Positions 1 through 10,793 of a stretch of 10,793 bases of DNA are shown piece after piece; the stretch's first letter is position 1, and the number at the start of each line of letters is the position of its first letter. Both the position numbers and the translations under genes were made by a program. The DNA comes from Promethearchaeota archaeon (GTDB lineage Archaea; Asgardarchaeota; Lokiarchaeia; Sigyniarchaeales; SOKP01). The DNA is taken from contig JBHLMP010000078.1 in the NCBI GenBank assembly GCA_048938025.1, positions 1-10,793 of the forward strand, in the 5' to 3' direction. The notes under the pieces were generated by a model, which saw only the letters and a program-made list of their open reading frames with translations, was not told where the DNA came from and made no database searches.

Positions 1-792
1 TGGGCTGAAAGTAGTGCTGTTTGTTATGCTAACTCAGTTATTGGAGCTCGGACTAATCGTGAGGGGGGACCAAGCGCATTAGCAGCAGCTTTAATTGGAA
101 AAACTCCTAAATACGGTTATCATTTGGATGAAAATCGTCATGCTCAAGTTCTCTTTAAGATAAATGCACCAGTTAAAGGTACTGACGAATTTGGCGTATT
201 GGGAAAAATAATTGGCGATAAATTGGTCGAATTAGGAAAAAAAATACCTTATATCACGGGAATTCCTTCCGCTACTGTTGAAGAACTTAAGTCATTTTGT
301 GCTTCCGTTGCTACTTATGGTGGAACAGCATTATTCCATATGGAAGAAATAACTCCAGAGTACAATAAATACCCTAAACCTAGCAATATTGTGTTTGAAA
401 TTAATCAAGATGACTTAGATAAAACTCGTGCTGAACTAACTGATGACGATATTGAAATAGATTTTGTAAGTATTGGTTGTCCTCACGCTTCAATTCACGA
501 AATTGCGAAAATAGCGAATTTATTAAGAGGAAAAACAGTAAAAAAAGAATTTTGGATAACAACTGCTCGACCTACAAAAAAAATTGCAGATGAAGTTGGT
601 TATTCTAAAATTATTGAAGATGCAGGAGCAAAGTTTGCAGCGGATACTTGTTGTGTTGTAGCCCCAATTAAGGAACGCTTCAAGGGAATAATGGTGGATT
701 CTGCAAAGGCATGTTATTATGGACGTGCAAAGAATAAATTTAAAGTAAAAATTGGATCAATTGAAGCTTGTGTTGAAGAGGCGATAAAATGA
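1..792 (+). CDS. Phosphomevalonate (mevalonate 5-phosphate) dehydratase large subunit / aconitase X catalytic domain (DUF521), 5'-truncated by the window edge
   Basis: Frame +1 is open from base 1 (WAESSAVCYANSVIGARTNREGGPSALAAALIGKTPKYGYHL...), which is the AcnX signature block, so the ORF-track start at 124 is not the real start. Fe-S ligand motifs GCPH (475-486) and DTC (643-651) are present. It is coupled to a DUF126 small subunit and mevalonate kinase, which favours the MVA5P dehydratase function over hydroxyproline dehydratase. Confidence 0.9.
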   Translation, partial: WAESSAVCYANSVIGARTNREGGPSALAAALIGKTPKYGYHLDENRHAQVLFKINAPVKGTDEFGVLGKIIGDKLVELGKKIPYITGIPSATVEELKSFCASVATYGGTALFHMEEITPEYNKYPKPSNIVFEINQDDLDKTRAELTDDDIEIDFVSIGCPHASIHEIAKIANLLRGKTVKKEFWITTARPTKKIADEVGYSKIIEDAGAKFAADTCCVVAPIKERFKGIMVDSAKACYYGRAKNKFKVKIGSIEACVEEAIK

Positions 793-1178
793 AGTTAGAG
801 GGGAGAAAAATATATAAAGGAACTGCTGAAGCAGAAGCTATTGTAACTAAAGATGCTATTTCGTTTTATGGGGGTGTTGATCCTGATACTGGTAAAGTTG
901 TTGAGATTGGACATGAACTTGAAGGTCAATCTATAACTGGAAAAGTTTTAATATTTCCAACTGGTAAAGGTTCAACAGTTGGATCATACACAATGTATAG
1001 AATGAAGAAGAACAATACGGCTCCAGTAGCTATTGTAAATAACCAAATTGACACAATCGTGGCAGTAGGATGTATAATTAGTGAAATTCCCTGTGTAGAT
1101 AAAATTGATATTAGTAATATTCACACTGGACAAAAAGTAATTGTTAATGGTTCTGAAGGGATCGTAGAGGTAAGATGA
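789..1178 (+). CDS. Phosphomevalonate dehydratase small subunit / aconitase X swivel domain (DUF126)
   Basis: 129 aa with ISFYGGVDPDTG, HELEGQSITGKVLIFP and GKGSTVGSY (catalytic Ser motif). It has a 4-bp ATGA overlap with the large-subunit stop codon. Confidence 0.92.
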   Translation: MKLEGRKIYKGTAEAEAIVTKDAISFYGGVDPDTGKVVEIGHELEGQSITGKVLIFPTGKGSTVGSYTMYRMKKNNTAPVAIVNNQIDTIVAVGCIISEIPCVDKIDISNIHTGQKVIVNGSEGIVEVR

Positions 1179-2114
1179 ATGGGATCTGGTAAGGGATATG
1201 GAAAAACAATATTATTCGGAGAACATTTTGTAGTGTATGGATTACCAGCAATTGCATCGGCTTTAGGATCCTATACAATTGCCAATGTTAAAGTTGTCGA
1301 TGGTAAGGGTTGGTCTGTCGATGATCAGAGACCTGCTACTCCTGGCTACAAAAAAAAGAAATATAACGAGGCAATGCAATCAATTACAAATATAATTGAA
1401 CACCTAAAGGTGGATATAGAAAGTCAAAAGCTTGATATAACTTTTTCCGGAGATTTAATTGCGGCAAGCGGAGTGGGTGCTTCAGCAGCTCAATGTACTT
1501 CACTTGCTCGTGCTTTGAATGATGTATTTAAGCTAGATTTAGATGATGAAAAGATTAATGAAGCAGCATATGAAGGAGAGAAAGCTTATCATGGAACACC
1601 TTCTGGAATCGATAATACTGCATCAACTTATGGTGGATTGATTTGGTTTATTAAAAATTTAAACGGTGGAAAAAATACAATGGATCTTCTTCAATCACCA
1701 AAAAAGATGCCATTAGTAATTGCCAATTCGGGAATCACAGCTTCAACAGCAGAAGTAGTTGCTGATGTTAGACGATTAAAAGAAGAAAATCCAAAAAAAT
1801 TTGATAAAATATTTAGTAAATATAACAATTTAGCAGAGGAAGCAAAAAAAGCCTTAATTAACGGAGATATAGTGGTTATTGGCAATTTGATGAATCAAAA
1901 TCACAAATTGCTACAAGAGATCATGGTTTCTGGAGAGATAAATGATAAATTGGTTAAGATAGCTCTTAAAAACGGGGCAATTGGAGCTAAAATAACTGGA
2001 ACTGGACGAGGTGGCTTAGTTATTGCTTTAGCTGAAAATGAAGAAATTCAAGAACAAATAGCTAAGGCTATTGAAAAAGAAGGATTTGATGCTTGGAGAA
2101 CAATGATCGGATGA
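1179..2114 (+). CDS. mvk: Mevalonate kinase (GHMP kinase family)
   Basis: Motifs GKTILFGEHFVVYG, ATP loop SGVGASAA, EKAYHGTPSGIDN and GAKITGTGRGG. The ATG directly abuts the upstream TGA (1176-1178) and is preceded by GAGGTAAG (1167-1174). Confidence 0.95.
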   Translation: MGSGKGYGKTILFGEHFVVYGLPAIASALGSYTIANVKVVDGKGWSVDDQRPATPGYKKKKYNEAMQSITNIIEHLKVDIESQKLDITFSGDLIAASGVGASAAQCTSLARALNDVFKLDLDDEKINEAAYEGEKAYHGTPSGIDNTASTYGGLIWFIKNLNGGKNTMDLLQSPKKMPLVIANSGITASTAEVVADVRRLKEENPKKFDKIFSKYNNLAEEAKKALINGDIVVIGNLMNQNHKLLQEIMVSGEINDKLVKIALKNGAIGAKITGTGRGGLVIALAENEEIQEQIAKAIEKEGFDAWRTMIG

Positions 2115-2127
2115 GAGTGATAGGAAA

Positions 2128-4020
2128 TTGAAAAATAGTAATGAAATAATTCTCTTAAAATTAGGTGGAAGTATATTAACTGATAAAAATAAACCTTTTT
2201 CTATTAGAGAAGATGTTGTAAGAAGCGTAGTTCAGCAAATAATTGATGCTAATAAAAAAATAATATTAATTCATGGAGGAGGATCATTTGGTCATCCACT
2301 TGCTAAAAAATATAATATTTCTACAGGAATTGATTCATCTATCTCAAATCAAATTCTTGGACTTTCAGAAATTCACCAATCAATGAATAAATTTAATTCT
2401 TATATAATTAATTTATTTTTAGAACATAAATATCCTGCCTTATCTGTTCAAACTTCCAGTATTTTTATCAAAGATTCTCAAATTATCTCAACATATTCTA
2501 TTGATATTATTGAAACTGCCTTGGATCTTAATATATTACCTATTCTATATGGTGATATTATTCTTGATAAGCAAGGTTCATTTTCAATAATTTCCGGAGA
2601 TAGGATTATTTTTGAATTATGTGAAAATTTAAATAAGTACAGTGTTTCAAAAGTCATATTTACGATGGAAACTGATGGTTTATATATTCAAGATAATGAT
2701 AAGAAAAGTATATTGGTTATAGAATGCAATTCCAACGAATTAGAAAGTTTAGAATTAGCAGCTCTGGGACAAAAAATTGATGTTACTGGAGGTATTAGAG
2801 GAAAAATAAATACTATAAAAGAAATATGTAAATATAATATTCCTGTTCAAATTATTAATGGTTTAGAAAATGGAAATATAATAAAGGCTTTAAAAGGTCA
2901 AAAAATTAAATGTACAGAAATTAATCCATCAAGACATGATGAAAATCAAATTATCAGTAATAGAAAGATAGAACATCTCAAAATACCCATCAAATATAAT
3001 GTTCAACATTTCAAAAATTATTTTAGATATATAGAGTTAATTCATCATTCATTACCTGAAGTTGATCTTAATGAAATTGACCTATCTGTAAACTTTTTTA
3101 ATAAAATTGTATCAGCACCAATATGTATCGCCGCAATAACTGGAGGGCATCCCTTATCAAAAGATTTGAATGAGATCCTCGCAACCTCAGCTGAGAAAGA
3201 AAATATAATCATGAGTGTTGGAAGTCAACGTGCTGGATTAATTAATCCTGAGAATCAAGAATCATTTCAAATTGTAAGAAAAGTAGCTCCTAATATCCCT
3301 ATTATTGGAAATATTGGTATTGGCCAAGTTGGAAGTCCAGATTTTAAACTAGAGGATTTCACAGGATGTATTGATATGATAAATGCTGATGTTATGGCGA
3401 TTCATTTTAATGCTTTACATGAATTGGTTCAGGATAAAGGAGATATATCTTTTAAACTGTTTAAAGATAATTTTAAGAAAATTCGTGAATCTACTAATAT
3501 TCCAATAATAGCAAAAGAAGTGGGATCAGGATTCAACAAGGAACTTGCTAAATCTCTAGATGACCTTGGTTTTGATGGATTTGATGTTGGAGGTGCAGGA
3601 GGTACTAGTTTTGCAGCCATTGAATCCTATCGTAATAAAAATGGCAGTAATATATTTAATCGAAAATTATCAGATGTTTTTAGAGAATGGGGTATCCCTA
3701 CACCTGTTAGTGTGCTAAATGTTAGAAATGTATCTAAAAAACTAATAATTGCTACAGGAGGGTTAAGAACTGGAGTAGATATTGCAAAAAGTATTGTATT
3801 GGGTGCTGATATCGGAGGATTTGCATTTAAATTTTTAAAATCTTCATTAATTGATCAACAACAAGGATCCATTTCTAATACTATAAAAGAAATAAAGACT
3901 CTCAAAAATGAGTTAAAATCTTCTCTCTGGCTCTTAAACCTAAAAGACATTAATGCTTTAAAGGGGAACAAAAATAAAAGAGTAATTACTGGAAAACTTT
4001 CTCAGTGGATAAATCAATAG
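2128..4020 (+). CDS. fni: Bifunctional fusion: N-terminal isopentenyl phosphate kinase (amino-acid kinase fold, ~aa 1-267) + C-terminal type 2 FMN-dependent isopentenyl-diphosphate delta-isomerase (~aa 276-630)
   Basis: IPK motifs KLGGSILTDK, IHGGGSFGH, GDIILD...SIISGD and DVTGG. IDI-2 motifs RKIEH, ITGG, GSQR, NIG, HFNALHELVQDKGD, KEVGSG, GAGGTSF, WGIPT and ATGGLRTGVDIAKSIVLGA. One uninterrupted frame with a TTG start, preceded by GAGTGA (2115-2120). Confidence 0.92.
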   Translation: MKNSNEIILLKLGGSILTDKNKPFSIREDVVRSVVQQIIDANKKIILIHGGGSFGHPLAKKYNISTGIDSSISNQILGLSEIHQSMNKFNSYIINLFLEHKYPALSVQTSSIFIKDSQIISTYSIDIIETALDLNILPILYGDIILDKQGSFSIISGDRIIFELCENLNKYSVSKVIFTMETDGLYIQDNDKKSILVIECNSNELESLELAALGQKIDVTGGIRGKINTIKEICKYNIPVQIINGLENGNIIKALKGQKIKCTEINPSRHDENQIISNRKIEHLKIPIKYNVQHFKNYFRYIELIHHSLPEVDLNEIDLSVNFFNKIVSAPICIAAITGGHPLSKDLNEILATSAEKENIIMSVGSQRAGLINPENQESFQIVRKVAPNIPIIGNIGIGQVGSPDFKLEDFTGCIDMINADVMAIHFNALHELVQDKGDISFKLFKDNFKKIRESTNIPIIAKEVGSGFNKELAKSLDDLGFDGFDVGGAGGTSFAAIESYRNKNGSNIFNRKLSDVFREWGIPTPVSVLNVRNVSKKLIIATGGLRTGVDIAKSIVLGADIGGFAFKFLKSSLIDQQQGSISNTIKEIKTLKNELKSSLWLLNLKDINALKGNKNKRVITGKLSQWINQ

Positions 4021-4075
4021 GTTTATAGAATTATCCTTTTTAATATTTAGTATCAAAAATTTTGTTATATACAAC

Positions 4076-4633
4076 TTACTTATTTCCCCATCTTTTTATA
4101 TCACTTTCTATACCCATCTGATCTAATAACCTTCCAACAGTGTATTCAATTAAATCATCCACACTTTTAGGTTTGATGTAATAGGAAGGAACTGGTGGTG
4201 CTATTACAACCCCAATTTTTGCTAATTTAAGCATGTTTTCAAGATGGATTGCACTTAGAGGACTTTCCCTTACTACAAGAACAAGTTTTCTTTTTTCCTT
4301 AATCATTACATCTGCAGCTCTAGTTATCAAATTATCTGCAAAACCATTAGCTATGGCAGCTAATGTTTTCATGGAGCAGGGGACAATCATCATTGTATCT
4401 ATCTTATACGACCCACTCGCTGGAGGTGCTGTAAGATCTTCTACATCATAGTTTTTATCAGCTAATTTACGTATATCAGAGAGATTATAATTCGTTTCAA
4501 TATTGATTATTTCCTCAGCTATTTTTGAAATGATTAGTTCGGTCATGATCTCTTTTTCTTTCAGCTTTTCTAATAACTTGATAGCTATTTGAACTCCAGT
4601 TGCACCTGTAATTGCAATTAACACTTGATTCAA
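4076..4633 (-). CDS. ubiX: Flavin prenyltransferase UbiX (prenylated-FMN synthesis)
   Basis: 185 aa with ITGATG, ASGSY, PCSMKTLAAIANGFADNLITRAADVMIKEKRKLVLVVRESPL, PPVPSYY.KP and a C-terminal RW. The TTG start gives the usual spacing to the ITG motif. Confidence 0.95.
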   Translation of the reverse strand: MNQVLIAITGATGVQIAIKLLEKLKEKEIMTELIISKIAEEIINIETNYNLSDIRKLADKNYDVEDLTAPPASGSYKIDTMMIVPCSMKTLAAIANGFADNLITRAADVMIKEKRKLVLVVRESPLSAIHLENMLKLAKIGVVIAPPVPSYYIKPKSVDDLIEYTVGRLLDQMGIESDIKRWGNK

Positions 4634-4666
4634 TCACTTCTCTATGTAAAATTTTAATCTTAACTA

Positions 4667-4679
4667 TTTTTAAATTTTC
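4667..4679 (-). promoter_or_regulatory. Putative archaeal BRE + TATA promoter for ubiX
   Basis: The minus strand reads GAAAA-TTTAAAAA (purine-rich BRE-like element then TATA-like box), ending 33 nt upstream of the ubiX TTG. The region is very AT-rich, so a chance match is possible. Confidence 0.4.
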
Positions 4680-4781
4680 AGATTCTTATATTTTTCCAAT
4701 TTAATACAATTAATATCAATCAAAAATCTCTCTTATATGATTTTTTTAGAATGTCTATTTTTAGCTTATTTTATCATAACA

Positions 4782-4789
4782 TTTAAATA
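4782..4789 (+). promoter_or_regulatory. Possible TATA box for the 661-aa surface protein gene
   Basis: TTTAAATA lies about 50 nt upstream of ATG 4838 in the divergent intergenic region. This is weak evidence given the AT background. Confidence 0.25.
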
Positions 4790-4837
4790 TTTTATTTTTA
4801 TTTTTTAATTTAAGCTAATGACAAAATTGTAAAATCT

Positions 4838-6823
4838 ATGAGAAGAACAAAAATTTGGACAATATCAATATTTTTAATCCCATTGCTAATAGTTATTCCA
4901 ATAAATATGATAATTACTCCTTTAACTACTTTAGAAACAGAAAATAAAGACATCAATGAAGAATTAAAAATTTCTACGGAAAGTGGTGGTGGATACCTTA
5001 TGAATACCGATGCTACTTATTCTTGGATCGAAATCCAGAGTACAGGGAATCTTATGACGATATCTGATGAGGATGATGAATCTGAAGGAATATCCTTTAT
5101 TGCTAATGGATGGACTTTTCCTTTTTATGAAACCCTATATGATGCCATTGTTGTTAGTTCTAATGGATGGATGAGTTTTCCTGATTTAGGGGATACTAAT
5201 TGGCTTTGCAATTATATACCTAGTGTTGAAAGTGAAAATATCGATTGTGTTGCTTTATTAGCGGAAGATTTATATCCTGGCTATTCTGGAAACATTTATT
5301 ATCAATTCTTTGATAGTGGACCAAATAGATATTTAGTGATAGAATACAGTCAAATTTACAATCTTGAAGAAGAATTAGTAGGGGATTTTGAAGTCATTTT
5401 TTATGAGAATGGAAACATTAAATTTCAGTACAAGATTATACATGATATTCCATGGTTATATCCGATTATTGGATTAGATCATGGAGATCTAACAAATTAT
5501 AATAGATACGATGTTGAATTACCATTAAGCTCGAAAGCCATTGAATTTACCTTTAATCAAATGATTGAAATTGAATATGGATTTAACTTTAATATAGAAG
5601 ACACTTTTTCTTGGCTTGTATTGGATGTTGATCATACTAAGATGGACCAAGCTTTTGGAATTAATTGGGAAACTGATTTTGGCTTGTATCCAGATATGTT
5701 GATTAACCAGAAAACTAAAATAAATATCTCATCTATCATGGAAAATTCTACACATTGGGAAATTAATTATAATTCATGGGATTGGATTAGTAAATACGAT
5801 ACCTTTAGTAGTAGTTATGATGGCATCGACACCATATCATATCGGAAAGAACCTCTTAATTATACTTCACCCCATCTATTACCAAATTACTATCCATTTC
5901 TATTGCCAAATCATACAATAGTGTACCTCACAAGAGCAAATCTCGATTATTATTATGACCAACTTCAGCTATCTAATTACGGTAATATAATTCTCGAAAG
6001 TCATATTAATATTGGTCCGTTAGAACATATTAATGTTGAAGCTATTTATACATCTTCCGGAATATTAGATGTACTTGAAATTTCAAAATCCATATATATG
6101 CATATTTCAGAATCCATATATAAATCATTCAAAGAAGTTATATTCTTAATGGTTAGATATCTTGAAGGGCCAAAACCCTTTTATGTAGGAGTAAATGAAG
6201 GCGAAGTTTATGAATATGGAGCGTATTACAGTGCTAAGAATGCCCTGCCATATTCTATGCCACCACCAGAAGAATTACCTGATAGAATAAGGATTTCTGT
6301 TGATTTTATTGGTGGAGAGGATCCTGAGTTTAATAGGTCTCTAGTAATTACTACATTATCAGAACGGTGGAATAATACTTGGAGGAATTCAACTATATAT
6401 GAAAACTATCTTTATAGGAATATCGAGAATATAGAATTAGTAGATTATATGCTGAATCAACCTATATATGTTGAACCAACCAATATTGATTGGGATTCTT
6501 ATGCATTAAAGATTCAAGATTGTTTTACCAGAACTGCAATTAGTTTTACTGTAACTGGTTTAAATAATGGTATAAAATTGTCTATTGGTGTACCTGGATA
6601 TACTTCAGAGATAATTGCGACTTATAACTCATCATCAGGCGTTTTAGATATTTTGTCATATAGGGTTAGTGGCAAAGAATTCCTTACATATAGATTAGAT
6701 GATTTTGATTATAAAATCAAGGGAAAGGAAGTTATTCCTGGCATGAATTGTTTCATTCTATATTTAATTCTATTAATGGGAATAATAAGTATAGCATGGC
6801 AGATCAAAAGAAAAATTACCTAA
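4838..6823 (+). CDS. Predicted secreted, C-terminally anchored cell-surface glycoprotein (nidogen/NIDO-like N-terminal domain, two degenerate ~200-aa repeats, Loki-CTERM/PGF-CTERM-like tail)
   Basis: Basic then hydrophobic N-terminus (MRRTKIWTISIFLIPLLIVIPI). The pattern DD..(x)..FPFY...Y..I.VSSNGW.SF and FEVIFYENGNIKFQY is nidogen-like. Eight N-x-S/T sequons are present. The C-terminus is IPG(M) + hydrophobic helix + KRK. Confidence 0.75.
   Translation: MRRTKIWTISIFLIPLLIVIPINMIITPLTTLETENKDINEELKISTESGGGYLMNTDATYSWIEIQSTGNLMTISDEDDESEGISFIANGWTFPFYETLYDAIVVSSNGWMSFPDLGDTNWLCNYIPSVESENIDCVALLAEDLYPGYSGNIYYQFFDSGPNRYLVIEYSQIYNLEEELVGDFEVIFYENGNIKFQYKIIHDIPWLYPIIGLDHGDLTNYNRYDVELPLSSKAIEFTFNQMIEIEYGFNFNIEDTFSWLVLDVDHTKMDQAFGINWETDFGLYPDMLINQKTKINISSIMENSTHWEINYNSWDWISKYDTFSSSYDGIDTISYRKEPLNYTSPHLLPNYYPFLLPNHTIVYLTRANLDYYYDQLQLSNYGNIILESHINIGPLEHINVEAIYTSSGILDVLEISKSIYMHISESIYKSFKEVIFLMVRYLEGPKPFYVGVNEGEVYEYGAYYSAKNALPYSMPPPEELPDRIRISVDFIGGEDPEFNRSLVITTLSERWNNTWRNSTIYENYLYRNIENIELVDYMLNQPIYVEPTNIDWDSYALKIQDCFTRTAISFTVTGLNNGIKLSIGVPGYTSEIIATYNSSSGVLDILSYRVSGKEFLTYRLDDFDYKIKGKEVIPGMNCFILYLILLMGIISIAWQIKRKIT
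6080..6122 (+). repeat. In-frame 24-nt-period direct repeat within the surface protein gene
   Basis: ATTTCAAAATCCATATATA (6080-6098) and ATTTCAGAATCCATATATA (6104-6122) are 18/19 identical and encode ISKSIY-MH-ISESIY. Confidence 0.85.
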
Positions 6824-6848
6824 ATTTTATTTTTTTTATTCTTTTTAA
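6824..6848 (+). terminator. Putative oligo-T (archaeal-type) terminator
   Basis: Long T tracts (ATTTTATTTTTTTTATTCTTTTTAA) follow the 6823 stop directly, in a convergent intergenic region. Confidence 0.4.
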
Positions 6849-6930
6849 TATTAATTGAAATATAAACGAATTATATTATTTGAAATTCTAAAATTTTTTA
6901 CTTATTCTAATTTTATTCAAGATTTATTGA

Positions 6931-7998
6931 TTAGAAATTTCTTTTAATAACAAATGTCAATAAATCTTCAAAAAATTCTGATTCGGATTGATTTATCGTA
7001 GATTTTAATTCATCTAATGCATTTTTAGCTTCAATATAGTAAGAATTTGCTAAATTTTTACAAAAATTTGATACATCTGCTTTTATAAACAAATTTTTAA
7101 CTTCTTGCACTTCACTTTGGGTCATATCAGTCTTTCCAATTAACTCATCTAGATATTTTTTATCATTATTTTTCAATTTATTTAACGCCTCTATCAATAA
7201 ACAAGTCTTCTTACCTTCCCTGATATCTCCATCTGTAGGTTTTCCAGTAACTTTTTCGTCTCCAAATGTTCCTAAAATATCATCAATTATTTGAAATATA
7301 ATTCCAAGATTTTTCCCATAAATGGAAAGATGTTTTAAATAATTTTCATCAACCCTAGCATAATTAGCTCCTATTAATATAGATTTTTCAATTAAAGCTC
7401 CGGTTTTAAGTGAAATCATCTCAATATAATCGGACATTGTTAGATTTTTTTTATTCACCATATCCGTTTCAATTAAAACTCCATTAGCAACTTCAATAAA
7501 TGCCTGTTCATAATAGTTAATTGCTTTTAGGTTAATATCTTTCTCAAAATTATTGTGTAAATATGCCTCTAATCCTAAGAAAAAGGCAGTATCACCCCCA
7601 ATTATTCCTATAGAATTACCAAAATCCACATCCATCATTTTTTTCAGATTATATTTTTTATGGTAATTTCGAAATCTGAAATGAAAAGCTGGTTGACCTC
7701 TCCTGAAATCATCTTTATCAATAATATCGTCATGAATTAATGATGCATTATGAAGAAATTCAATCCCTATACTAGGGAATATAATCCTTTCGTCAACATC
7801 GGTATGAAAAGCGTTATATGTAGCAATACAAATTAAAGGACGTATTCTTTTACCTCCTGATAAAAAGTAGTTCTTCAATTCAGAATAATAATCTTTTAAG
7901 AATTTATTTGTCAGACTACTTAATTTTTTATGATAAATTGATTTGATTGCTTCATTAATCTTAGGTATATATTTTTTTGCATATTCAGTAAATTTCAT
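6931..7998 (-). CDS. Trans-polyprenyl diphosphate synthase (IdsA/GGPP synthase family; product chain length uncertain)
   Basis: Motifs GGKRIRP, first Asp-rich motif HNASLIHDDIIDKDDFRRG, LKTG and GIIFQIIDDILGTFGDEKVTGKPTDGDIREGKKT. An RBS-like AAGTGA lies at 8005-8010 on the minus strand. Confidence 0.92.
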   Translation of the reverse strand: MKFTEYAKKYIPKINEAIKSIYHKKLSSLTNKFLKDYYSELKNYFLSGGKRIRPLICIATYNAFHTDVDERIIFPSIGIEFLHNASLIHDDIIDKDDFRRGQPAFHFRFRNYHKKYNLKKMMDVDFGNSIGIIGGDTAFFLGLEAYLHNNFEKDINLKAINYYEQAFIEVANGVLIETDMVNKKNLTMSDYIEMISLKTGALIEKSILIGANYARVDENYLKHLSIYGKNLGIIFQIIDDILGTFGDEKVTGKPTDGDIREGKKTCLLIEALNKLKNNDKKYLDELIGKTDMTQSEVQEVKNLFIKADVSNFCKNLANSYYIEAKNALDELKSTINQSESEFFEDLLTFVIKRNF

Positions 7999-8202
7999 TA
8001 AAAATCACTTTACTTAATTATAAAAATCTATGTTCTACTCATATTATATTACCTTTATTTTTTTCAATTAAAAGTGAATTCAGATTTTCAATATTCTTAA
8101 CTACTAGAAAATTGATTAAATAAGATCTAGGTATCTCAGCAATTATCTTTATGAATCTAATACTATACATCAAAAAATAAAAAATATCCATGTATCTTTT
8201 AA

Positions 8203-10793
8203 TCACCTTATAAAATTAAACTCAAGTTTAATTGTAGCAATAATATATGGTTCCATTGTAATTGCAAGTTCATTTTGGTAAAATTTATTAATATTTGCCT
8301 TGATTTCATTTTTCGGTCTTTCTTCTAAGAAATTAACTATTTCCGCTTCCTGTATAGAAATATCTTTATAAAAAGTCAATTTAGTTTTTTGTAAAAAAGG
8401 AGATATGTTATAAATCCGAATTATTAAGCAATCACCTTTTTCTGATTTTTTTAAAGCACTTAGCATAATATTTTTATTCTCTATTTCAAGAAAACTTAAT
8501 TCACTTGGTAAACAAGGGACTATACTTTTATCTAGAACTCTATTTGAATCAGTTAATAAACCCATTCGTGTTAACATTAATAATTCTGGGTGGTTTAGGG
8601 TTGAAGATAGCATTAATGGAAATATAGGTTTTAAAGGACAATTAAATTCCTTTCCCTTAATGTGGACTTCTGAATCAAACCAATATCTCTTGTAATCTTC
8701 TACAACTAACGATAACTCAAAAGAATAGTTCCCAATACATTGGGCACCAGGAGTCTTAAGACTTGGTCCAGCATCATTTCTTCTAGAATCTAAATCAGGT
8801 CTTGAAAGCCAACCAATACTGCGTAAAAGCGTTATTGCCACTGTAATTGTTCCATCTTCATTCTTTATTGCCTCATATTCTGGTAATCCTCTATTTAATA
8901 TGGAATAACTTTTTGATTCATCATGTAATGCAATAAAATCCTTTTGATGGCTTGTTTTTGATGGCTTTTGCCTCCATTTTTTACCATTTGGTATAGTAAT
9001 ATTTCTAGGGACAATATAAAAATGTCCATCACAAAATACTTTATCTGATATAATTTTCGAAGGGAACAGAACCCTAATTCTATGATCTTTGCATTTATTC
9101 TCCAAATCTATTTTAAAATCTATGCGATTAATACCTTTATATAAAGAAACATAAAGAGTAATGACATTTTCGAAAAGATTTTTTTCTCTTTTTAAACGAT
9201 CTGGTGTTAATGACTCTGGTAAATTCAGGATCATTTTCATTTTTATAGATTTTTGAGAAGGTCCATTTAGGAAGGGAATTAATTCTACGATTTTAGCATC
9301 ATCGGTAGTATATTTTTTGTCTACTTGGTTACGTGTTGGTCCTGAATAATCATATTCATCTCCCCAATCCGCTATATCCTCGAATTGACATACTTTTTCA
9401 AACCATATGTTTCCTTTTTTATCAAGAATATTAATTTGCCCATCATTTTTTACCTCTACTTTATAAAATTCATTTTCAATTGAGTTTTCGCCCAATATAA
9501 AATTAATTTCATTAATAATGTCTTTTTTAGCTGTTTCTTCAAGATTTATATAATATACTTTATAGCCACATGCTGGAACCTCTGCTAAAAATGAGAATTG
9601 ATAACTAATATCAATTTCTCTAGAAAATCTAGGTTCTCCTTGTATAGGGTAATCCTGATATACAATTTCATTATTATCGGAATCTGTTAATTTAAAGTCT
9701 TTAGGAAATTTTTGCTGTAAATTGTTTGCTTTTGAAATAGCATTGAAAATTACAATATCTTTGCGTTTCCATGGTAATGGATTAAAGATTATTAACGCAA
9801 TTCTATTATTTTCTTGTGGTTTGAAATTAATTAAACCAGAAAGATACATAAATGAGTGATTAAATACTTCAATTCCTATTTGTTCCGCCCAGTCAAACCT
9901 TGTTTTCATTTCATTATGAACTTGGTCGATACTACAGCCACAGATAGAATCATGAGGATGATTTTTAATTAGCCATTTTAACCCATTTTGAATATAGGAA
10001 TAAGGATAATTGAATTTTTGAGATTTATCAAGAACCATAGTAATTGCTGAAATTGGTTCAGTATATTTCTCAAATAAATATTCAATCTTTGTATTTCTCT
10101 GCTTTATCCACATTCTAGCAGACAATACTCCAGAGAGGATAGGTGAGTATTTACTACCTCTGAGTTCACCTTCAAAAGATTTTAATTTTGGATTTACTGA
10201 AAGAACTTTATCAATATAATATTCAAAGTCATTTTGCTCCAATAGTATATCAGGATGCAACTCATTCCATTGCTTAACTATTTCAGGAATTTCTGGATAT
10301 GCCTCTCGATGATCTGAACCATTATTAAGTAATACAATTGGAGTTGCTGTATAAATTTCTATGTCGTTCGCTACTCTCTTTATCTTTTCCATTGCCTTTT
10401 TGTACTTTCCATCCTCTAAAATAGTATCTAGATATACCAAAGAGCTATATCCTCTAATTAAATGAATGGCTAAAACTGAAGCTGCATTTCCCGGAGATTC
10501 CCAGATAAATTCCATGTTCAAATTATTCTCTTCAAATTCATTACCAAAACCTCTTTCAAATATAATTGAGGGAATCTCAAAACCGCTTATAATTTGGGGT
10601 AATTGTGCAATATGCCCAAAGGGATCAGGAATATAGGCTGCCTTCATAACTCTCCCGAATTTTTTAGCAATTTGATTCCCAATTAGTAAATTCCGAATCA
10701 GTAATTCACCACTTATTAAAAACTCATCAGGCAATACGTACATTGGACCTATAGAGAGTCTTCTCTCTCTTATATATTTTTTAAGTTCCTCTT
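8203..10793 (-). CDS. Glycoside hydrolase family 38 alpha-mannosidase (MngB/Ams1-like), 5'-truncated by the window edge
   Basis: The frame stays open past ATG 10743 to the edge (EELKKYIRERRLSIGPMYVLPDEFLISGE...). Motifs include nucleophile YIPDPFGH, NGSDH, middle-domain HPHDSICGCSIDQVH, and C-terminal DHRIRVLFP and ITLLRSIGWLS. Confidence 0.92.
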   Translation of the reverse strand, partial: EELKKYIRERRLSIGPMYVLPDEFLISGELLIRNLLIGNQIAKKFGRVMKAAYIPDPFGHIAQLPQIISGFEIPSIIFERGFGNEFEENNLNMEFIWESPGNAASVLAIHLIRGYSSLVYLDTILEDGKYKKAMEKIKRVANDIEIYTATPIVLLNNGSDHREAYPEIPEIVKQWNELHPDILLEQNDFEYYIDKVLSVNPKLKSFEGELRGSKYSPILSGVLSARMWIKQRNTKIEYLFEKYTEPISAITMVLDKSQKFNYPYSYIQNGLKWLIKNHPHDSICGCSIDQVHNEMKTRFDWAEQIGIEVFNHSFMYLSGLINFKPQENNRIALIIFNPLPWKRKDIVIFNAISKANNLQQKFPKDFKLTDSDNNEIVYQDYPIQGEPRFSREIDISYQFSFLAEVPACGYKVYYINLEETAKKDIINEINFILGENSIENEFYKVEVKNDGQINILDKKGNIWFEKVCQFEDIADWGDEYDYSGPTRNQVDKKYTTDDAKIVELIPFLNGPSQKSIKMKMILNLPESLTPDRLKREKNLFENVITLYVSLYKGINRIDFKIDLENKCKDHRIRVLFPSKIISDKVFCDGHFYIVPRNITIPNGKKWRQKPSKTSHQKDFIALHDESKSYSILNRGLPEYEAIKNEDGTITVAITLLRSIGWLSRPDLDSRRNDAGPSLKTPGAQCIGNYSFELSLVVEDYKRYWFDSEVHIKGKEFNCPLKPIFPLMLSSTLNHPELLMLTRMGLLTDSNRVLDKSIVPCLPSELSFLEIENKNIMLSALKKSEKGDCLIIRIYNISPFLQKTKLTFYKDISIQEAEIVNFLEERPKNEIKANINKFYQNELAITMEPYIIATIKLEFNFIR

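Follow-up and report, generated by a model that had tools for sequence, protein, structure and literature searches.

A natural fusion of isopentenyl phosphate kinase and type 2 isopentenyl diphosphate isomerase in Asgard archaea

Introduction

Can two consecutive enzymes of isoprenoid-precursor synthesis be made naturally as one polypeptide and, where a locus appears to do so, is the joint real, how did it arise and what would it do? The question is raised by a 10,793-nucleotide stretch of DNA (referred to throughout as the window), which spans positions 1 to 10,793 of the forward strand of contig JBHLMP010000078.1 in assembly GCA_048938025.1, from a Promethearchaeota archaeon of sediment. One open reading frame (ORF) of the window, at 2128-4020, joins an isopentenyl phosphate kinase (IPK) to a type 2 isopentenyl diphosphate (IPP) isomerase (IDI2). 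Both enzymes belong to the archaeal-type mevalonate route, which comprises AcnX, a UbiD-type decarboxylase with UbiX, IPK and IDI2. A first-pass annotation, made from the sequence of the window alone, had described the frame as a natural fusion predicted to take isopentenyl phosphate through IPP to dimethylallyl diphosphate (DMAPP). The frame, its junction, its relatives and its surroundings were analysed computationally.

One open frame with two complete domains

The frame at 2128-4020 (+) contains zero internal stops between the TTG at 2128 and the TAG at 4018-4020 (ORF scan). The NCBIfam equivalog model IPPK_Arch (NF040647) was matched by residues 8-265 with 217.3 bits (cut-off 120), over model positions 1-259 of 259. 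IPP_isom_2 (TIGR02151) was matched by residues 278-615 with 345.6 bits (cut-off 281.3), over model positions 1-333 of 338. Pfam placed AA_kinase (PF00696) at residues 7-244 (97.6 bits) and FMN_dh (PF01070) at 446-612. The two-domain match within the fused frame is far above chance level.

Solved structures gave the same picture. Residues 6-261 pair with residues 20-274 of T. paralvinellae IPK (E 1e-48), and the IPK half was alignable to four different solved IPKs, M. jannaschii IPK among them. Residues 276-628 pair with residues 4-351 of S. shibatae IDI2 (2zru; E 4e-68). The stand-alone archaeal IPKs (T. paralvinellae 8u0k, M. jannaschii 3k4o, Ca. Methanomethylophilus alvus 7lnt, 3ll9 and 3lkk) resemble residues 6-265 of the fusion end to end, with E values of 1e-48 to 1e-34. 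They share its fold, and the fusion keeps their GGS and HGGGSFGH motifs together with the Lys/His/Asp/Lys set. They are, however, separate chains of ~250-290 residues, whereas the C-terminus of the IPK half continues into the isomerase. Likewise, the IDI2 half lacks the free N-terminus of S. shibatae IDI2 (2zru/2zrw/3vkj) and of the bacterial enzymes (1p0k, 1vcf, 3sr7, 4n02). Other archaeal IDI2s carry a C-terminal tail of ~15 residues, which is missing in the window's family from fused and split forms alike.

At the junction the protein reads ...KCTEI-NPSRHDENQIIS-NRKIEH..., and the peptide ...KCTEINPSRHDENQIISNRKIEH... is encoded at ~2908-2976 of the window. In-frame ATG, GTG and TTG codons are absent from codon 196 (nt 2713) to codon 347 (nt 3166) of the fused gene, and a complete IDI2 would therefore have no canonical initiation site near the junction. 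No Shine-Dalgarno (SD)-like hexamer was found in 2860-2990 by motif scan. The SD-like GTGAT at 2117..2121, just upstream of the TTG, would serve as the ribosome-binding site of the fused gene. The first-pass annotation had reported complete IPK and IDI2 motif sets in one frame, a junction devoid of stop, in-frame start and ribosome-binding site, and the position of the junction peptide. Both equivalog matches, the frame and motif scans and the location of the peptide bear it out, and its observation as a whole was right in all particulars checked.

Fold was assessed with an AlphaFold2 model of the fused protein (mean pLDDT 88.7, pTM 0.69), in which both folds are reproduced. Using Foldseek, the IDI2 half matched 2zrw_A with a TM-score of 0.90 (E 1.3e-35, rmsd 2.0 over 362 columns). 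The IPK half matched solved IPK chains with TM-scores of 0.81-0.89, normalised to the target (0.88 for 7lnw_B and 8u0k_A). No solved chain spanning both halves was present among the Foldseek matches, TM normalised to the query being at most 0.52. In the model the last IPK strand (263-266) is followed by a loop of ~5 residues (267-271) and then by the first IDI2 helix (272-289), which carries R279, K280 and H283; pLDDT is 74-85 across the junction. A complex prediction for residues 1-266 against 272-630 (score 0.00, mark 0.32) is evidence neither way.

These data also bear on whether the long polypeptide is the working form, or whether separate IPK and IDI2 are produced from it by non-canonical internal initiation or by proteolysis of the linker. 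General knowledge allows it, rare start codons being usable in archaea and linkers being open to cleavage, and nothing direct points to it. The run from 2713 to 3166 free of in-frame ATG, GTG and TTG, the lack of an SD-like motif in 2860-2990 and a linker that is mostly structured in the model argue against it, making separate products exceedingly unlikely.

Catalytic residues

Residue conservation was measured over 49 fused sequences with identity down to 37%. In the IPK half K11, H56, D158 and K226 are invariant. In 3k4o the aligned chain residues are K12 for K11, H66 for H56 and K227 for K226, which we take to be Lys6, His60 and Lys221 in native M. jannaschii numbering (6 less than in the chain) and thus, presumably, the catalytic His and the phosphate-binding lysines. 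In the IDI2 half R279, K280, H283, S366, R368, H426, N428, E432, K463 and E464 are invariant. All but E464 correspond to S. shibatae residues (R7, K8, H11, S96, R98, H155, N157, E161 and K193, respectively), and R7, K8 and H11 presumably belong to the substrate-binding N-terminal segment.

One position departs from the S. shibatae enzyme. His431 (window 3418-3420) occupies the position of S. shibatae Gln160, a residue that presumably lines the active site. A literature search and the accessible text of the review PMC3509576 yielded nothing on S. shibatae Gln160. His is found at this position in 116 of the 120 family matches and in the split family IDI2 P0122. Among the 131 motif-bearing IDI2 representatives listed, the position is occupied by Gln in 115, His in 11, Met in 2, Leu in 2 and Ser in 1, and the His-bearing representatives include unrelated clusters, e.g. 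the DXS-IDI2 fusion P0182. With His in 11 of 131 representatives against Gln in 115, His431 is read as a natural minority variant. The conservation pattern supports catalytic sets that appear intact in both halves, save for this Gln-to-His change.

The same residue is the point of departure for a different reading, in which one half is dead or repurposed, for example a His431 isomerase serving as scaffold or sensor with the activity supplied elsewhere. The near-constancy of the His in the family, P0122 included, is what this reading can draw on. Against it, every other catalytic or binding residue checked is invariant, both equivalog cut-offs are passed and unrelated IDI2 clusters carry the same His. 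The genome also speaks against it. In the window's own genome (3.52 Mb, 96.7% complete) the fused protein gave a single match, and no IDI-1 was found above cut-off. As there is no second match, the fused gene is the only IPK and the only IDI2 found in the genome, and both halves must consequently work. A dead or repurposed half is therefore considered very unlikely. Many genomes of the family hold a second, unlinked IPK-like gene with 31-36% identity to the IPK half (G016:C7:57235-58035, G053:C126:4404-5201); unlike in these, no second IPK-like match was found in the window's own genome.

The junction in independent data

Contigs in Logan from three runs in three studies bridge the junction ungapped, with no insertions or deletions listed. 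Record 3 of X1 covers 2268-3225 with 1 difference; record 19 of X5 (2742-2985) and record 28 of X8 (2667-3038) come from other studies. In X4, two listed pieces end at 2913 and resume at 2956, leaving the junction unbridged. No RNA data set was listed as containing the stretch.

Of 880 protein matches in a 5.8-billion-protein collection, the best 120 were all 622-678 aa long and contained PF00696 and PF01070; they originated from NCBI, JGI, ENA and Logan. At least 120 protein clusters at 90% identity in public collections share the IPK-IDI2 architecture, which is not rare in sequence data. Where the sources name these best 120 matches, they call them only "(type 2) isopentenyl-diphosphate delta-isomerase". 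The matches are labelled as Promethearchaeota, which NCBI taxonomy ranks as a phylum, as Lokiarchaeia or Lokiarchaeota, or with one of a few further Asgard names.

An assembly or sequencing artefact that merged two adjacent genes would look much the same on one contig, since relatives with split genes in the same frame exist (26/110, see below) and the loss of a spacer in assembly would resemble a fusion. One X1 contig contains a joint that omits 2862-2994; its shorter side is 26 letters, and short-sided joints of this type commonly derive from other organisms. Set against these are the ungapped bridging contigs from separate studies, the presence of the same architecture in 66 independent genome assemblies and in at least 120 protein clusters drawn from four sources of data, and fused linkers that are kept as protein sequence across 37-97% identity. 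The artefact is effectively refuted already, with a negligible residual probability, and 2128-4020 is confirmed as a genuine natural IPK-IDI2 fusion.

Fused and split genes among relatives

To establish distribution, 41 relatives, 121 genomes of the window's family (f1) and 400 genomes of the phylum were searched, and 131 loci were retrieved. Locus classes were set by tblastn of both halves and translation across the gap. In f1, 119 genomes had a match and 110 were classified. The nine omitted were five genomes of genus g13 with the halves on different contigs, G081 (two contigs) and the contig-end fragments G071, G097 and G119.

The genes are fused in 66 of the 110 f1 genomes and adjacent but split in 38 (26 in the same frame, 12 in another frame). 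In 3 more, one half is cut by a contig end, and in the last 3 the halves are separated or differ in strand. Of the 12 genera sampled, 9 include fused forms, and the window's own genus has 36 fused among 49 genomes. Of the 21 loci from outside f1, 4 carry the fusion, namely G272 of family f2 in the same order and G297-G299 of family f26 in the same phylum. A further 16 are adjacent and split, 10 of them in frame, and 1 is cut by a contig end. Same-frame pairs are thus unusually frequent among split loci (26/38 in f1, 10/16 outside), although these rows are related to one another and not independent. Long-linker fusions were considered for G046, G065 and G268, which have open frames of 674 and 691 aa, and rejected; their spacers contain 5-7 stops and the loci were classed as split.

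Between alignment ends, the linker of fused forms is 7-11 residues long, in most cases 10-11. Split Asgard pairs (e.g. G080, G013, G036, G307) have the gene order, orientation and upstream mevalonate kinase of the window, and split relatives reach up to 73% identity to the window protein. They differ from the fused gene in a common spacer of ~27 codons with 1-3 stops and a new ATG, e.g. ...CTNILINK*F*IMTSSKYREEKMPKPNHSKEIMD-RKLEH... (stops as asterisks). The fused linker is similar to the final dozen or so residues of this spacer. We infer that fusion and fission differ by an insertion or deletion of ~16 codons that would remove or add the stop and the start. Where the split genes share a frame, in-frame deletion of the short stop-bearing spacer could yield a fusion.

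Beyond these genomes, HMMER was run exhaustively against 1.84 billion cluster representatives and gave 5362 matches. Among the best 150 of these, the only full-length fusions were P0027, P0125, P0126 and P0127, which fall in families f1, f26 and f2 (two clusters). P0124, from f1, is truncated, and all five match both equivalogs. No IPK-IDI2 fusion from outside the Asgard archaea was found among the best 150 of the 5362 matches, a depth at which weaker fused forms could escape. The scan also returned P0123 (529 aa), in which an N-terminal fragment resembling the CDC48 AAA ATPase (61.7 bits) is joined to an IDI2 of the family type on a 3.9-kb contig. Rather than a genuine fusion, P0123 may reflect a chimera of assembly or gene calling.

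Origins of the fusion

A maximum-likelihood tree was made from the concatenated halves (120 rows, 622 columns) using the IQ-TREE quick search under LG+G4. Rows left out were four that are partial and seven with non-adjacent genes or one half only. The tree requires at least 7 changes between the fused and split states, 4 of them forced by starred branches. Placing all 67 fused rows in one clade lowered the log-likelihood by 463.5 and was rejected by the approximately unbiased (AU) test (p-AU 6.5e-38), the group having been defined after viewing the tree. The f26 fusions adjoin split genes of family f28, and G272 adjoins split genes of f2/g9. Several independent fusion or fission events have taken place within the Asgard phylum.

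The tree alone cannot separate gain of the fusion from its loss. Since every solved homologue and almost every listed one has a single domain, the split state was taken to be ancestral. The deepest f1 branches carry fused forms, and the 37 split f1 rows are grouped in one region of the tree; a single clade of these 37 rows was not rejected (p-AU 0.435). Most simply read, the phylum has seen at least 3 fusions that arose independently, including an early one in f1 with at least 1 later reversion to split genes. In the free tree the window's own five-genome fused clade lies inside the split clade, with SH-aLRT of only 81-90. Re-fusion within a split clade was considered for these five genomes and is a less simple reading than retention of the ancestral fusion, since a single split clade is compatible with the data and the linker resembles other fused linkers.

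The ipk-idi2 gene tree also departs from the genus codes: g1 appears in at least 4 clades, and g12 and g16 are scattered too. This suggests operon exchange between genera or a coarse definition of genera.

The earlier expectations about relatives can be read against these results. IPK and IDI2 had been described as normally separate, often adjacent genes, and adjacent separate genes are indeed seen in relatives. Checks had been proposed for a stop or indel at the junction, of which independent contigs show none, for close relatives that are all split, which instead are mostly fused (36/49 in the genus), and for the domain architecture elsewhere, now found as PF00696 plus PF01070 in at least 120 clusters and in 66/110 family genomes. 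The suggestion that the fusion could mark a lineage did not hold up; being polymorphic within genera and gained or lost several times, it is a poor clean marker.

Genomic context

Features of the window are collected in Table 1. The fused gene is the fourth in a compact same-strand run that begins with the genes for the large and small AcnX subunits and mevalonate kinase. AcnX presumably acts as phosphomevalonate dehydratase in the archaeal mevalonate pathway. The UbiD-type decarboxylase of that pathway requires prenyl-FMN, the product of UbiX, and polyprenyl diphosphate synthases consume IPP and DMAPP. In the window's own genome a UbiD homologue lies on another contig (C46), and no diphospho- or phosphomevalonate decarboxylase was found above cut-off. 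Judged by its predicted neighbours, the fused gene sits in an archaeal-type mevalonate operon.

Table 1. Features of the window and the basis on which each was placed
Feature	Position	Strand	Description	Basis
AcnX large subunit, cut by 5' contig end	1..792	+	Candidate phosphomevalonate dehydratase large subunit	PF04412, 309.6 bits
AcnX small (swivel) subunit	789..1178	+	4-nt overlap with large subunit gene	PF01989; NF003046, 177.6 bits (cut-off 163)
Mevalonate kinase	1179..2114	+	13 nt 5' of fused gene	TIGR00549, 238.5 bits (cut-off 163)
SD-like GTGAT	2117..2121	+	6 nt 5' of TTG start, just past mevalonate kinase stop (2112-2114)	Motif scan and sequence
Fused ipk-idi2 gene	2128..4020	+	630 codons, TTG start, TAG stop, ~69.8 kDa predicted	ORF scan and computed mass
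IPK domain, amino-acid kinase fold	2149..2922	+	Residues 8-265	NF040647, solved-IPK alignments, invariant columns, TM-score
Junction	2923..2958	+	Residues 266-277 (NPSRHDENQIIS)	Junction peptides and structure model
Type 2 IPP isomerase domain, FMN TIM-barrel	2959..3972	+	Residues 278-615	TIGR02151, 2zru alignment, TM-score
UbiX-family flavin prenyltransferase	4076..4633	-	Convergent with fused gene	TIGR00421, 258.2 bits
Short-chain polyprenyl (geranylgeranyl diphosphate (GGPP)-type) diphosphate synthase	6931..7998	-	NCBIfam GGPP_syn match below cut-off	PF00348, 192.9 bits

Two further frames complete the window. The ORF at 4838-6823 (+) encodes 661 aa with a hydrophobic N-terminal stretch and no Pfam or NCBIfam match. 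Its structural neighbours in the Atlas are surface proteins of Ig-like/CARDB type, with TM-scores of only 0.28-0.39, and the product probably is secreted or sits on the cell surface, with no relation to the operon. The minus-strand gene at 8203-10793 resembles GH38 alpha-mannosidases, contains four GH38 Pfam domains and runs past the contig end; it falls far short of the mannosylglycerate hydrolase model (393 against a cut-off of 1138).

Discussion

The locus very probably encodes one ~70 kDa chain in which two enzymes of the archaeal mevalonate pathway are both active, derived from an adjacent ipk->idi2 pair. Frame, domains, conservation, fold, distribution and repeated origin all point this way, and the activities and the route of origin would be as follows, with any kinetic benefit hypothetical. 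The N-terminal IPK would convert isopentenyl phosphate and ATP into IPP, and the C-terminal FMN-dependent type 2 isomerase would interconvert IPP and DMAPP. The gene would have arisen when an adjacent ipk->idi2 pair lost the ~16-codon part of the spacer that bears the ipk stop and the idi2 start, so that the N-terminal tail of IDI2 was turned into a linker of 10-11 residues. Whatever its kinetics, the fusion forces the enzymes of the last two steps to be made 1:1 and to stay together.

Some of the evidence weighs against this reading, or against the importance of the joint. The short-sided X1 joint and His431 have been described above. Any advantage of fusion appears dispensable and possibly small, since 38 of 110 family genomes are split and a single reversal was not rejected (p-AU 0.435). 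That close relatives switch so readily between the fused and the split state likewise suggests that any benefit is modest. An engineered fusion of choline kinase and IPK in Chlamydomonas (ScCK-AtIPK) follows the same idea of placing consecutive C5-diphosphate enzymes on one chain, although it is artificial, uses GS linkers and has another partner; it gave less IPP than the separate enzymes (PMC9505001). Joining consecutive enzymes is thus not automatically beneficial.

More than co-synthesis would be gained if IPK dimers and IDI2 tetramers or octamers formed a defined super-assembly, in which IPP is handed from kinase to isomerase and the IPP:DMAPP output is fixed. In favour of this, the linker is very short (~5 loop residues in the model) and conserved in length (7-11 residues, mostly 10-11), and the kinase is tethered ~12 residues before R279, K280 and H283, the partners of S. 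shibatae R7, K8 and H11. Moreover, the fusion has been gained or lost repeatedly in Asgard lineages, and an octameric IDI2 is on record in the PDB (title of 3vkj). However, a pTM of 0.69 leaves the arrangement of the domains unfixed, and the alternation of split and fused genes among close relatives speaks against an indispensable assembly. Because the IDI2 equilibrium is reversible, channelling would also add little thermodynamically. Such an assembly is accordingly regarded as rather unlikely. The same low standing is given to its fullest form, in which the tether beside the IDI2 substrate segment lets IPK dimers cross-link IDI2 tetramers or octamers into a fixed nanomachine; this would pass IPP straight to the isomerase, supply the nearby prenyl synthase with IPP and DMAPP in a set ratio and have been selected at least 3 separate times in Asgard archaea. 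If that were true, the frequent in-frame split genes would be an evolutionary on-ramp to fusion.

The single chain with two working enzymes remains the preferred reading. A natural counterpart seen in the searches is P0182 (980 aa), a DXS-IDI2 fusion matching TIGR00204 with 813 bits and TIGR02151 with 415 bits. A truncated second protein of this kind, P0221 (472 aa), was also seen. Like IPK-IDI2, P0182 places two precursor-pathway enzymes on one chain, but it belongs to the methylerythritol phosphate (MEP) pathway and joins non-consecutive steps, whereas IPK and IDI2 are consecutive. IspDF and MvaE-type proteins are other natural fusions of isoprenoid-precursor enzymes, from the MEP or the upper mevalonate pathway. 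Enzymes of consecutive steps are well known to become fused, and IPK and IDI2 are each textbook enzymes.

No description of a natural IPK-IDI2 fusion was found in the literature, papers on mevalonate-pathway evolution included; supplements and most subscription journals were outside the scope of this search. The first-pass annotation had known of no characterised fusion of this type, and the search agrees. In the accessible part of PMC6107057, fused partners are trimmed ahead of tree building and nothing more is said of fusion. PMC11052028, on the evolution of the mevalonate pathway in Asgard archaea, contains zero occurrences of fused or fusion. The accessible text of PMC13198327 and PMC6775978 applies 'bifunctional' or 'fused' to other enzymes.

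For enzymology, the split orthologues (at most 73% identity) would serve as controls in a natural test of the kinetic gain from fusion. For engineering, the gene may offer a ready-made single part for IP -> IPP <-> DMAPP. For annotation, a pathway reconstruction that allows each gene a single function can overlook the IPK of a large family of the Lokiarchaeia type, because the sources name the fused proteins only as type 2 IPP isomerase, and a missed IPK bears on the current debate over the evolution of the mevalonate pathway in Asgard archaea. For the evolution of the family itself, the locus provides a well-sampled case of recurrent fusion and fission of consecutive enzymes, whose intermediates (adjacent genes, often in frame and with a short spacer) survive in relatives.

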